From IMG/VR virus record IMGVR_UViG_2563366976_000013: a stretch of 43,386 nucleotides of DNA. One strand, written 5' to 3'. The notes under the pieces are model-generated. The model had not been told where the DNA came from, ran no database searches, and worked only from the letters and a program-made list of their open reading frames with translations. Of the stretch, positions 33,167 to 37,230 are shown in pieces. The DNA comes from a virus (taxonomy: Duplodnaviria > Heunggongvirae > Uroviricota > Caudoviricetes). Made by a program: the position numbers and the translations under genes. How positions within the stretch are numbered: the stretch's first letter is position 1; the number at the start of each line of letters is the position of its first letter.

Positions 33167-33227
33167 CTTTATCCTCGCTTATCCACATAACTTATTGATT
33201 ACATTGATAACTAAAAAGATCGTCGAT

Positions 33228-34266: not shown

Positions 34267-34303
34267 TTATCAAGACGTAAAAAAATGCGCTATCGCGCTG
34301 GTA

Positions 34304-35086
34304 TTACTTGATAAATCCTGCCGCCTTTCCCCGCCTGTATTCCTCCATCAGCCACTGCGCCGGTGTTATTCCCCCAAGGGTGGCGGCGTTAGGCATGCAC
34401 CCGAAACTTCGCCCTGGTGGATGGTAAACGTCTCTCCCTGTGTCCGGAGGTGTACTCATGGGCTCTCGCTTTGCCTGTATGCTGATCACCGGATCGGGTA
34501 TCTGCTGTCCGGAAGCTACCTTTTTCGCCCAATCATCGAGCAGCCTGCGCGCGTGTTTCTCAACCTCAATCTCGCTAAGCTGGCGCTGATACATTGCACG
34601 GCGGGTATCACATACGACCCAGTACATAACCGGATGTCGCCACGGGAATCTTTCGGGACCACCAGGATATAAACTTTTTTCCTTGCTGTACCGGTGAAAC
34701 TCCGCCATCACATCGTCAATGGTGACGCCAAGAACCATCTTGCTGTCTTTGCACCACTTGATAAATTGCCCTGGCGACGGCCAGAACGGAGATTCACTGG
34801 CGCGGGCGTGGCGCATACCAGCGTTAACCTGTTCCATTGTTGTGATCCCATTCTCCAGAAACGCAAGCATCCATTGTTTTCGAAATTCGTTTAGCTTTCC
34901 TTGCTCGCTGATAGCAGCGATGCTGCCTGGAAATGCAGCCTGTAACTGGACAAACATTTCGTTGAAAATTCTTGCAACCTGCTCCTTCTTTGCCCTTTCA
35001 TCGTCAGCAGAAGCAACCGCCGTCGAGTGGTCATGCCCACCACGAAAGCGATCGTACTCATTAAGAAGTTCTGGAGTTGATTTCAT
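34304..35086 (-). CDS. Replication protein P-like (helicase loader)
   Basis: Strong colinear match to lambda P as recalled (FRKQWMLAFLENGITTMEQVNAGMRHAR...PFWPSPGQFIKWC); RBS GAGGTG. Confidence 0.8.
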   Translation of the reverse strand: MKSTPELLNEYDRFRGGHDHSTAVASADDERAKKEQVARIFNEMFVQLQAAFPGSIAAISEQGKLNEFRKQWMLAFLENGITTMEQVNAGMRHARASESPFWPSPGQFIKWCKDSKMVLGVTIDDVMAEFHRYSKEKSLYPGGPERFPWRHPVMYWVVCDTRRAMYQRQLSEIEVEKHARRLLDDWAKKVASGQQIPDPVISIQAKREPMSTPPDTGRDVYHPPGRSFGCMPNAATLGGITPAQWLMEEYRRGKAAGFIK

Positions 35087-35894
35087 CCCACACCTCATCT
35101 ATCCAGTCAGTGTTATGCCAGTCAAGGCTCTTTCTGACTTCACCTGATTTCTGTCTACAGAACTGGATGCGCCTTGCCAGCTTCTGCTCCCACTGTGCCT
35201 GATGGTATGCCTTACCCTCAGCCATCCAGTAAATTCTGAACTCTGCAAGTTCCTGTGCCGTTGGCAGACTGTCCAGGTAGATCCCCTGCAATGAGCTTTT
35301 CCGAAGAAAGTCATCTGATGGCTGCCATTGTTCATGCATGACAAATTTGCCTAATTGCCCTGGCCCACCAGGAGGAACAAAGTTATTCATCACGGCGTTG
35401 TTTGCGCCGGGGTCATGAGGCACAGAATCCCCGCTTTTTGTCCTGCTCTCCCTCTCTTGGTTAAATGACTGGTTATATGACTGGTTCTGGATCCCGTTTT
35501 TGGGATCATTCAACATCCCGTTTTTGGGATCATTCAACATCCCGTTTTTGGGTATATTCCCGTTTTCGGGTATATTCCCGTTTTCGGGTTCATTGCCCCC
35601 CTCCCGGTTGCCTTTAATGTTCCCGTTTTTGGTTATATTAAGAGAGAAAACCCGCACTCTTTTTGTCGCTCCCTTTCTCTCTCCGGTATCTGAAATAAGC
35701 CCCATTTTCATGAGCGATATAAGCCCGGCCTGCACGGTTTTTTTATTCAGGCAAGTGTCTTTAACGAGGCGTTCTATGCTGGGGTAGCAGAGGTTATATT
35801 CATCGGCTCTGTCAGCCATCGAGAGCAGTATGAGCTTTAATGATGAGCTACCTGGATCTGTCTCCCAGGCCCAATCTGTTGCATGTCTGCTCAT
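35061..35894 (-). CDS. Replication initiator O-like protein (contains origin iterons)
   Basis: Position upstream of P; internal repeat NGNIPENGNIPKNGMLNDPKNGMLNDPKNG encoded by DNA iterons. Confidence 0.65.
   Translation of the reverse strand: MSRHATDWAWETDPGSSSLKLILLSMADRADEYNLCYPSIERLVKDTCLNKKTVQAGLISLMKMGLISDTGERKGATKRVRVFSLNITKNGNIKGNREGGNEPENGNIPENGNIPKNGMLNDPKNGMLNDPKNGIQNQSYNQSFNQERESRTKSGDSVPHDPGANNAVMNNFVPPGGPGQLGKFVMHEQWQPSDDFLRKSSLQGIYLDSLPTAQELAEFRIYWMAEGKAYHQAQWEQKLARRIQFCRQKSGEVRKSLDWHNTDWIDEVWDEINSRTS
35491..35640. repeat. Replication origin iterons
   Basis: Six or more copies of CCCGTTTT(T/C)GGG-containing 18-24 bp units, followed by AT-rich tract. Confidence 0.65.
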
Positions 35895-35909
35895 GATTAA
35901 TCTCCGCTA

Positions 35910-36173
35910 TCAGCTTGAGTGTTGTGGGGAGGAATTAATCATGATCTGCTTAATCTCTGCCCTGATGCGACGGTTTGATTCCATGGTGCACTCAACACAG
36001 TGTCCGTTGTAAACCCAGCGTTCACTGTCATGTCCATGCTTACATGGTTTTCCGGTGTAGTAGCGTTTAAGTCCGCGCTTTGCGGCATCAATACGTGTAA
36101 TGATTTCCATGGTAAGCCCTGTTATTAGTATTGGGATTACGGTCATTTTGTGCTGACACAAAAAAAAGATCAA
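35910..36173 (-). CDS. Small zinc-binding protein in cII-equivalent position (probable start 36110)
   Basis: CKHGH...CVEC motif; between Cro-like and O-like genes. Confidence 0.35.
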   Translation of the reverse strand: MIFFLCQHKMTVIPILITGLTMEIITRIDAAKRGLKRYYTGKPCKHGHDSERWVYNGHCVECTMESNRRIRAEIKQIMINSSPQHSS

Positions 36174-36260
36174 CCAGATTTGGTTTTTTATTACCTTTGA
36201 GGTACGAATAGATATGAAAAGACCGCCGGGTGGCGGTCTACAGAGGGTTGTAGCTGGATA

Positions 36261-36491
36261 TCATGAGTAGAAGAAGTATGCCAGTTCTGCTTTTGAGCGC
36301 AGCCATTGTCTTGTTTTACAGGCTTTAAAAAGCCCATTCATCAATACCTTACCTGGCATTTTGCGCTTACCTGTTAAGTGAGTCTGGATATAGTGACTCG
36401 TCGTTCCGGCTTCCTGTGCGAAGGCTTCACGCTCATCCGGAGTAAGTGCAAGCCAGTGCTTTTTGAAATCGAAATGTCCGTTATCGCTCAT
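36261..36491 (-). CDS. Cro-like HTH regulator
   Basis: 76 aa, first gene of early-right operon divergent from repressor gene. Confidence 0.5.
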   Translation of the reverse strand: MSDNGHFDFKKHWLALTPDEREAFAQEAGTTSHYIQTHLTGKRKMPGKVLMNGLFKACKTRQWLRSKAELAYFFYS

Positions 36492-36527
36492 AGCTATTGC
36501 CTGATATTTATTTCAGATAATAAATAT

Positions 36528-36590
36528 TCACCCATAAGGTAACAAAAATCAAGGATAGTTACCTGTGGGGTGCATTTACCTGTTGGGTAA
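36528..36590. promoter_or_regulatory. Tripartite immunity operator O1-O3 with divergent promoters
   Basis: O1 TCACCcataaGGTAA (36528-36542), O2 TTACCtgtggGGTGC (36559-36573), O3 TTACCtgttgGGTAA (36576-36590); minus-strand -35 TTGTTA / -10 TATTAT overlaps O1. Confidence 0.55.
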
Positions 36591-36645: not shown

Positions 36646-37230
36646 ATGAAAAGTATCCAGGACGTCCGCAGGCAAAATCTCAACGACTTGATCGACCGTG
36701 AATTCAATGGTGTTCAGACGCGGATGGCAGAAAAACTTGGAACTCAGGCAAATCTGGTAAACCGCTGGGCTCTTGGCAAGAAGGTTATCGGCGACCAGGT
36801 TGCACGAAAAATTGAAGCTGCCGCCAATAAACCCCGTAACTGGCTTGATATTGATCGTTCGCTTTCTCAGGAGGGTTTTCAGCCTGTCGGCCCGAGCGAT
36901 ATAGGTCAGCTGGCGGCTCACAACCTGGAACGCTGGATGAGCGAAAGCCGCGACCTTTCAACACAGGGAAAACTTCACCGCGCATCCGGCGTCGCCCAGG
37001 TGACAATCAGCCGCCTGTTAAACAATGAGGTCAGCGTTTCCATTTCCACCCTGGAGAATGTTGCATCCGCATTCGGGCGTCACGGATATGAACTACTGAT
37101 TCACCCGCACGACCCTGCGACTATCAACTATGACCGCTCGCGCTACGCATTGTTACCCGAAACCGAGAAAGCAAAGATCGAAAGTTACATTGAATTTGTC
37201 ATCAACCAGAACGAAAAAAGCAAAAAATAA
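36646..37230 (+). CDS. CI-like repressor with two HTH regions and no recognisable LexA/S24-type self-cleavage domain
   Basis: 194 aa; HTH-like segments near residues 20-45 and 115-140; C-terminus lacks Ala-Gly/Ser..Lys peptidase signature; divergent from Cro-like gene. Confidence 0.55.
   Translation: MKSIQDVRRQNLNDLIDREFNGVQTRMAEKLGTQANLVNRWALGKKVIGDQVARKIEAAANKPRNWLDIDRSLSQEGFQPVGPSDIGQLAAHNLERWMSESRDLSTQGKLHRASGVAQVTISRLLNNEVSVSISTLENVASAFGRHGYELLIHPHDPATINYDRSRYALLPETEKAKIESYIEFVINQNEKSKK

Follow-up and report, generated by a model that had tools for sequence, protein, structure and literature searches.

Where does a phiV10-like prophage start its replication? The question is raised by IMG/VR virus record IMGVR_UViG_2563366976_000013 (Duplodnaviria; Heunggongvirae; Uroviricota; Caudoviricetes), a stretch of 43,386 nucleotides referred to here as the window, in which the middle of a replication initiator gene on the minus strand consists of short direct repeats that at the same time encode a repetitive peptide. 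The part of the window holding this gene (34300-36500) is about 98% identical to Escherichia phage phiV10 and relatives (Uetakevirus, epsilon15-like). A first reading of the letters, from here on the original prediction, had taken the repeats for origin iterons inside a gene like O of phage lambda. This proposal held on every computational test run, and we conclude that the array is most probably the replication origin of a phiV10-like temperate phage, lying in the initiator gene as ori-lambda lies in O; that the initiator binds the array, that the strands open and that the origin fires is what we infer.

The conclusion is based on the position of the array between a winged-helix N-domain and a C-domain, with a lambda-P homologue after the gene; on the finding that the repeat core follows the same N-domain in many genera, whatever helicase or loader gene comes next; and on conservation at synonymous sites, the reading of the core in three frames, arrays specific for N-domain subfamilies and a natural fusion in Edwardsiella phage Edno5. 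The design is already well known from lambda, and the window is a further example of it, with an initiator outside Pfam's lambda O class. No description of this iteron family or of a phiV10 origin was found in the searchable literature.

Six iterons within one gene

Read on the plus strand, the repeat unit is (T/A)TCCCGTTTT(T/C)GG(G/T), present in six copies in 35491-35643. Tandem Repeats Finder resolved the array into a 24-bp unit repeated 2.6 times with 100% matches (35491-35552) and an 18-bp unit repeated 2.8 times with 96% matches (35540-35589); a repeat-family search returned a single family (n=6 copies) with spacings of 24, 24, 18, 18 and 45 bp in ascending coordinates, which along the gene's direction are 45, 18, 18, 24 and 24 bp; and the 11-mer pattern CCCGTTTTYGG matched six times with 0 mismatches between 35493 and 35632, with no other site in the 43-kb window. 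The at least six copies of an 18-24 bp unit that had been noticed by eye were thus recovered by all three procedures. The full CCCGTTTTYGGG is found in five of the six copies, the sixth (35622-35633) ending in GGT.

Statistical support for the units, which the original prediction had asked about, came from 300 dinucleotide-preserving shuffles of the window: 0.13 copies of the core are expected per 43 kb, and two cores within 160 bp occurred in 0/300 shuffles. No other iteron-like cluster was found elsewhere in the 43-kb window.

In most copies short dyad arms surround the A-tract, e.g. ATCCC-AAAAAC-GGGAT and GATCCC-AAAAAC-GGGATC, and five of the six carry CCC(A/G)AAAACGGG dyads. Covariation of these arms was considered as evidence for dimer sites and left unused, the arms beyond CC/GG being only sometimes complementary. 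Terminator-like matches on the plus strand inside the array were dismissed as by-products of the repeat.

Three GATC (Dam) sites lie within 42 bp, at 35490, 35504 and 35528 (window 35490-35531). They arise from the GATCCC...GGGATC form of the 24-bp units and are common to the arrays of Superficieibacter, Phaseolibacter and Edno5; since the arrays of Proteus and Alkalimonas are without them, the sites are probably incidental. Effects of SeqA are known for lambdoid origins.

The initiator protein and its peptide repeat

The initiator is 90% identical to gp43 of phiV10. Pfam recognizes two domains, HTH_36 (aa 18-67) and the DNA-binding domain of DnaT (aa 184-250); Phage_rep_O (PF04492), which lambda O matches at 5.7e-36, found no match in the window's protein. 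The repeats lie, as had been proposed, within the coding sequence of an initiator, but the gene is on the minus strand and O-like in a sense other than that of Pfam. In the AlphaFold2 model the N-domain (aa 1-89) has a pLDDT of 83-91 in most 10-residue blocks, lower at aa 71-90, and the predicted order helix-helix-strand-helix-helix-strand-strand is that of a winged helix. A Foldseek search of the model against the PDB yielded generic winged-helix regulators only, all with E above 1e-3, and the N-domain sequence profile gave the same picture against PDB chains. From residue 90 to about 190 the pLDDT is near 30. The iterons and the 12-mers that follow them occupy the first two thirds of the linker codons, the array itself being encoded at aa 87-134.

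Behind the linker, aa 180-255 align with DnaT residues 85-160; there is no full-length DnaT homology. This alignment shows the C-domain to be clearly homologous to the part of DnaT, the replication-restart protein of the host, that binds ssDNA, and for this reason databases name the gene 'primosomal protein' or 'DnaT-like'. As names for an initiator gene, 'primosomal protein' and 'DnaT' mislead.

The protein ends with a short tail resembling that of lambda O. This likeness stands alone, the rest of both proteins being dissimilar. A tail of the LDWHNTDWI type is common to TL-2011b, and an alternative tail, VPHWNSPEAWEDFL or SWNTPEAWRDFI, is found in phiV10, Tyrion, Superficieibacter and Providencia. 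A P-family gene comes next in the window, phiV10, Superficieibacter, Providencia and Edno5 (by Pfam match or record annotation); in TL-2011b and Tyrion the gene next to the initiator carries no name in the records. The tail may be the motif to which P docks.

In the reading frame of the gene the array gives TKNGNIKGNREGGNEPENGNIPENGNIPKNGMLNDPKNGMLNDPKNGIQNQSYNQSFNQ, and the linker peptide runs ...TKNG...PENGNIPENGNIPKNGMLNDPKNGMLNDPKNG..., with repeats of the types PKNGMLND and PENGNI. Because the spacings are multiples of 3 bp, all six copies stand in one frame and yield a peptide repeat. Its predicted richness in Asn, Gly and Pro was borne out: 16 N, 9 G and 5 P in 59 residues, or 51% N/G/P.

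The spacer between iterons 1 and 2 (35588-35622, minus strand; codons GNREGGNE) contains a G6 run and is hypervariable among prophages with a 100% identical N-domain, R being exchanged for L and G for S, V, D, W, C or R. Several database ORFs (P0002, P0004, P0005) are frameshifted and encode a truncated N-domain, ending within the array; TGA is met in both alternative frames of the 24-bp unit. These ORFs may reflect errors of sequencing or be pseudogenes, or they may represent genuine N-domain products in truncated form. A proposal even less likely than that of a sequence-specific melting element, described below, is that by frameshifting within the array a truncated N-domain is made which regulates the use of the origin.

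Selection on the DNA or on the peptide

Whether DNA or peptide is conserved was studied with relatives having N-domains 40-87% identical to that of the window, one genome per species being used. The sources were Superficieibacter, Phaseolibacter, Providencia, Proteus, Ignatzschineria, Alkalimonas, Pseudoalteromonas, Arsukibacterium, Rheinheimera and a Halieaceae bacterium; the phages added were Edno5, Vibrio phage Cla, Acinetobacter phage AP22 and PPompW. In most of them an array of the same 10-bp core directly follows the N-domain; in all, the core was found behind the N-domain in 15 species genomes and 4 phages. A few have variant or degenerate iteron copies only, and in the relative from Acinetobacter calcoaceticus (L099) there was no array after the N-domain.

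The core is not bound to one reading frame. Over 19 genes (the window gene and 18 relatives) it lies in frames 0, 1 and 2 in 46, 9 and 5 copies, respectively, counts that overstate the number of independent events, since the copies of one locus arose by recent duplication and some of the loci are related. In Alkalimonas and Rheinheimera three copies 17 bp apart encode VPKTE, FQKRN and SKNGT in a single intact ORF, and at the position of the first iteron Proteus has TQKR where the window has TKNG. The four iterons of lambda itself, which the same repeat tool recovered, are read in frames 0, 2, 2 and 1, as calculated from their coordinates.

The wobble positions tell the same. Repeats were picked by the peptide [PTS][KE]NG alone, because picking copies by their DNA would have been circular. 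In these peptide-defined repeats the wobble bases inside the core are C in 28/28, A in 28/28 and C in 27/28 copies, the background in the rest of the same genes being 24%, 64% and 45%, respectively; the third base of the Gly codon, which lies one position beyond the core, varies freely (G 10, T 12, A 6). The pattern of a core kept at the DNA level holds across Enterobacterales, Alteromonadales, Vibrionales and Cellvibrionales.

More distant proteins, with N-domains of about 30% identity, have different arrays at the same position, for example ACCCCCGCAGnnnnTGC in three to eight copies or GGGGCAGGAGCTGCCC in three. An Stx2a prophage has three copies of GGGGCAGGAGCTGCCC there, Vibrio phage pA2SJ1 three of ACCCCCGCAGAATCTGCG and Aeromonas phage 51 a related set of CCCCGCAG... 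repeats. In the 'replication initiation O-like' gene of Pseudomonas phage phi2 (L113, 1517-1667) at least seven copies of ACCCCCGCAGnAAATGC are spaced by 17 bp, so that the reading frame rotates from copy to copy; it is the tightest packing seen in this superfamily. Which repeat is present thus goes with the type of DNA-binding domain, as one would expect if the repeats are its cognate sites.

Copy number was compared in 80 IMG/VR contigs whose N-domain is 100% identical: they have one to five 24-bp, one to four 18-bp and two to three 12-bp units, the changes always comprising whole in-frame units.

Taken together, frames, wobble bases and covariation with the N-domain point to selection on the DNA and not on the peptide. 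On these grounds the peptide repeat is a by-product of in-frame spacing of DNA sites in a disordered, sequence-tolerant linker, and the claim that the DNA repeat constrains the protein sequence is supported.

One N-domain and its array with exchangeable partners

Relatives that share the N-domain and the core differ in the C-domain and in the next gene, the C-domain changing along with the partner. The N-domain and array are paired with lambda P in the window, Superficieibacter, Providencia and Edno5, with a DnaB-like helicase in Alkalimonas, Arsukibacterium, Rheinheimera and AP22, with a Toprim-DnaB primase-helicase in Phaseolibacter and with a DnaC/IstB-like loader in Pseudoalteromonas obscura.

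Two 'plasmid' records of E. coli (NZ_CP079771.1 and NZ_CP079768.1, both 41,027 bp) encode an N-domain with 100% identity; probably these are genomes of phiV10-like phages. A third (NZ_CP148379.1; L111), circular and of 8,461 bp, contains dicA-like, cro and ydaT genes, an HTH_36/DnaT-like initiator (49% identical N-domain), P and a few cargo genes; no other rep gene is listed, and the record resembles a lambda-dv-like replicon. Small 'plasmid' records with a related initiator hint at autonomous replication, but assembly may have produced them, and the initiators in them are only 46-49% identical.

The repeat behind the array and a proposed mechanism

Directly after the last iteron a second repeat with a period of 12 bp begins, reading AGAACCAGTCA in the window, with a GC content of 0.345 over 29 bp; its exact 11-mer has no other site in the window. 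In the relatives the motif AACCAGTCA occurs twice, either 12 bp apart (NQS.NQS) or 13 bp apart (NQS then EPV), and is therefore read in two frames. The conserved pair always stands after the array, and distant subfamilies have a positional analogue, GA(T/A)CCTAACAAT, also twice. By its position and conservation the 12/13-mer is a candidate for an unwinding, loading or second-factor element. A more specific proposal, which we regard as rather unlikely, is that the pair is a sequence-specific melting or loading element bound as ssDNA or dsDNA by the C-terminal part of the initiator or by a host factor; if it were true, a widespread class of phage origins would set the point of unwinding by sequence and not by an AT-rich tract.

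Initiation might proceed as follows. The N-terminal winged-helix domain would bind the six CC(A/G)AAAACGG iterons, giving an 'O-some'-like complex on intrinsically bent A-tract DNA. This nucleoprotein complex would then destabilize the adjoining AGAACCAGTCA 12-mer region, whereupon the DnaT-like ssDNA-binding domain and the lambda-O-like tail would recruit the complex of the lambda-P homologue with the host DnaB helicase.

Points against an origin and rival explanations

Several findings weigh against the array being an origin. The AT-rich tract that the original prediction placed after the iterons is weak: the GC content behind the array is 0.345-0.425, compared with 0.20 in the AT tract of lambda. 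The 40 bp after the last iteron (GC 0.425) are at the 31st percentile of the 40-mers of the window, and by nearest-neighbour stability the post-array 40-mer is at the 8.5% least-stable mark of the 5.8-kb locus versus 0.1% for lambda. As a control of the scan, the lambda AT tract came out as the least stable 40-mer of gene O. The least stable 40-mer of the window's initiator gene is found at the other end of the array, where it overlaps iteron 1. A plus-strand stretch with GC 0.325 does exist (35610-35649), but as the gene is read it lies upstream of the array, and lambda has its AT tract on the other side. The link to lambda O is also indirect. Pfam assigns the N-domain to HTH_36 and not to Phage_rep_O, and its hhalign profile is not significant against lambda O (probability 2%); direct homology was consequently given up, BLASTP having aligned the 9-residue tail only. 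Furthermore, the initiators of TL-2011b (L002, 2253-3077) and Tyrion (L003, 2279-3046) have no in-gene array. They have kept the DnaT-like C-domain and P and have unrelated N-domains without a Pfam match. The expectation that an array had been swapped in together with these N-domains failed in both phages and succeeded only with true relatives of the N-domain; an in-gene origin is thus not obligatory for the module. Finally, the number of independent events is smaller than the copy counts, and binding, unwinding and firing are steps that we infer.

The weakness of the AT-rich tract would be explained if the repeats were genuine binding sites of the initiator that serve mainly for control (through autoregulation, through titration or handcuffing of the initiator, or by blocking transcription), the strands being opened elsewhere. 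Such a function would also agree with the free copy number among near-identical prophages (one to five 24-bp units, one to four 18-bp units) and with the weak binding of the outer iterons of Stx phages, although these are needed for replication (PMC7466680). However, this layout in lambda is the origin proper; in six of the 14 relatives examined, no 40-mer of the entire gene is less stable than one lying 12-55 nt past the last iteron; and the conserved pair of 12/13-mers is invariably present behind the array, the only iteron-like cluster found in the 43-kb window. We therefore consider a role in control alone improbable. Another possibility is that slippage has generated a low-complexity peptide repeat in a flexible linker, under selection at the protein level if any and without a role of the DNA in cis. 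Six copies in one frame, unit lengths of 18, 24 and 12 bp (all multiples of 3), changes by whole units among close relatives and the predicted disorder of the segment are what one would expect of it. It is very improbable nevertheless, since relatives read the core in three frames into unrelated peptides, the wobble positions of the core are invariant next to a free Gly wobble, the identity of the array changes with the N-domain subfamily, and lambda has its iterons in an equivalent linker in frames 0, 2, 2 and 1.

Least probable of all, and hardly to be credited, is an element acting in the RNA, in which hairpins of the early mRNA or slippage on AAA-AAC modulate translation or yield a protein consisting of the N-domain only. 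The array RNA does fold better than shuffled controls (z = -4.6), but so would any set of dyads, and conservation across genera is limited to CC...GG, too few pairs to make a stable stem, the outer arms being often mismatched. Rfam gave no match for the array. For slippage one could cite the TGA codons in both alternative frames and the truncated ORFs described above; yet CCC precedes AAA AAC, so that the canonical slippery heptamer X XXY YYZ is absent, and the truncated ORFs could equally well be assembly or sequencing errors in homopolymer runs. An origin of replication thus remains the best explanation of the array.

Features of the locus and genomic setting

The coordinates of the array and of its neighbours are given in Table 1. 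The upstream order of repressor, cro-like ORF, terminator and small ORF is as in lambda. The ORF at the cII position probably begins at an internal start codon, because the phiV10 homologue is annotated at 66 aa and the PHROG match covers only part of the ORF. There are no DnaA boxes near the array; the nearest match, at 33179, is no closer than 2.3 kb.

Table 1. Features of the initiator locus in the window (position 1 is the first letter of the 43,386 nucleotides)
Feature	Position	Strand	Remarks
Lambda-P-family helicase-loader gene	34304-35098	minus	Pfam PF06992 (Phage_lambda_P), E 4e-53; start overlaps the end of the initiator gene
Replication initiator gene	35061-35894	minus	277 aa; PHROG 1032 'replication initiation protein', E 4e-102
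C-terminal tail LDWHNTDWI, aa 257-265	35100-35126	minus	7/9 positions as in lambda O aa 286-294 (LDLTNTDWI)
DnaT-like ssDNA-binding domain, aa 181-253	35136-35354	minus	Pfam PF17948; PDB 4ou6/6aep/9zbt, E about 1e-19
Linker, aa 90-180	35355-35627	minus	Predicted disordered, pLDDT about 30 (AlphaFold2)
Second repeat AGAACCAGTCAT / ATAACCAGTCAT / TTAACCA	35458-35488	minus	12-bp period, directly after the array
Iteron array	35491-35643	minus	Six direct repeats with the 10-bp core CC(A/G)AAAACGG (gene's strand)
Iteron 6 core GATCCCAAAAACGGGATC	35494-35503	minus	Final copy in the gene's direction
Iteron 5 core, inside 24-bp unit GATCCCAAAAACGGGATGTTGAAT	35518-35527	minus	
Iteron 4 core CCCAAAAACGGG	35542-35551	minus	Encodes P-K-N-G
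Iteron 3 core CCCGAAAACGGG	35560-35569	minus	Encodes P-E-N-G
Iteron 2 core CCCGAAAACGGG	35578-35587	minus	Encodes P-E-N-G
Iteron 1 core ACCAAAAACGGG	35623-35632	minus	Nearest the N-domain; overlaps codons for T-K-N-G at the domain end
N-terminal winged-helix DNA-binding domain, aa 1-89	35628-35894	minus	Pfam HTH_36; AlphaFold2
ORF at the cII position	35910-36173	minus	PHROG 1081 (unknown function), aa 22-87 only
Early-right-operon context upstream of the initiator	36220-36545	minus	
Terminator-like hairpin	36220-36239	minus	
Small ORF at the cro position	36261-36491	minus	
Promoter-like site	36517-36545	minus	
Divergent HTH repressor gene	36646-37230	plus	

Significance

With the array, a probable replication origin has been located for the phiV10/epsilon15-like (Uetakevirus) prophages, a group often met with in E. 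coli, O157 among them; papers on reporter phages and phage engineering deal with phiV10 itself. The comparison with relatives defines a portable cassette of a winged-helix N-domain, CCAAAAACGG iterons and a 12/13-mer pair, which recurs across gammaproteobacterial phages with interchangeable helicase-recruiting modules. The locus is also a clean natural case of the same DNA appearing to serve as protein-binding sites and as coding sequence, in which the direction of the constraint (DNA over peptide) can be read from frames and wobble positions. What frames and wobble bases show, together with the conserved pair of 12/13-mers, deserves the attention of specialists.

Comparison with known systems

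As in the window, the origin of lambda in gene O consists of direct repeats with dyad symmetry around a central A-tract in the linker-coding middle of an initiator gene, the A-rich iteron strand being the coding strand (TCCC-AAAAAC-GGGA in the window, TCCCTC-AAAAC-GAGGGA in lambda). Both initiators have a winged-helix DNA-binding N-domain, both genes are followed by a helicase loader of the P family, and the gene order repressor/cro/small ORF/initiator/P is the same. The cores differ in sequence and length (CC(A/G)AAAACGG in the window versus TCCCTCAAAACGAGGGA in lambda), and so do the spacings, which are 18 and 24 bp in the window, multiples of 3 that create the peptide repeat, and 20, 24 and 23 bp in lambda. 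In place of lambda's strong AT tract the window has the 12-mer direct repeat, and in place of the Phage_rep_O protein an HTH_36 N-domain with a DnaT-like C-domain, only the 9-residue tail being lambda-O-like.

Lambda has four iterons, and the Stx phages 933W and P27 have six in the same in-gene layout; the extra iterons lengthen O and are needed for replication, even though the outer ones are bound weakly (PMC7466680). A variable number of iterons that changes the length of the protein is thus common to the window's relatives and to the lambda/Stx phages.

A link between the two N-regions is found in PHROG profiles annotated 'replication initiation O-like', in which the ranges of both proteins overlap: PHROG 678 matches the window's initiator at aa 1-146 (E 2e-12) and lambda O at aa 1-172 (E 2e-35), PHROG 345 at aa 3-160 (E 1e-8) and aa 16-169 (E 5e-17), respectively. 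PHROG clusters may contain mosaic proteins and the link is transitive, so what it suggests is a very distant common ancestry of the N-domain with the N-region of lambda O.

The iteron origins of plasmids (for example pPS10, RK2 and R6K, with initiators of the Rep_3/RepA type) likewise have clustered direct repeats, a winged-helix initiator and an unwinding element with 13-mers. In these plasmids the rep gene does not contain the iterons, DnaA boxes are commonly present, and there are two winged-helix domains in Rep. The window's initiator differs from these in having one winged-helix domain, an array within the gene and no DnaA box nearby, and it found no match to Rep_3 or a related Pfam family. 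DnaT of E. coli shares the ssDNA-binding domain and is without the winged-helix N-domain, the iterons and the P partner; the phage protein would be an origin-specific initiator and not a restart factor.

Closest to a bridge between the window and lambda is gp55 of Edwardsiella phage Edno5, annotated 'replication initiation O-like', the N-domain of which is 57% identical to that of the window. Its gene contains at the same position an array of one CACCCAAAAACGGG and three GATCCCAAAATTGGGAT copies spaced by 24 bp, followed by a AGAATCAGTCA element and by the P gene, and it is preceded by genes for an HTH regulator and a CII-like protein in the order repressor-cro-cII-O-P. It differs from the window's gene in that most iterons have TT for AC in the core and that the C-terminal 144 aa are not DnaT-like but 61% identical to lambda O aa 156-299. 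In this hybrid the cassette of N-domain and array therefore fills the slot that in lambda is taken by the N-domain of O and ori.

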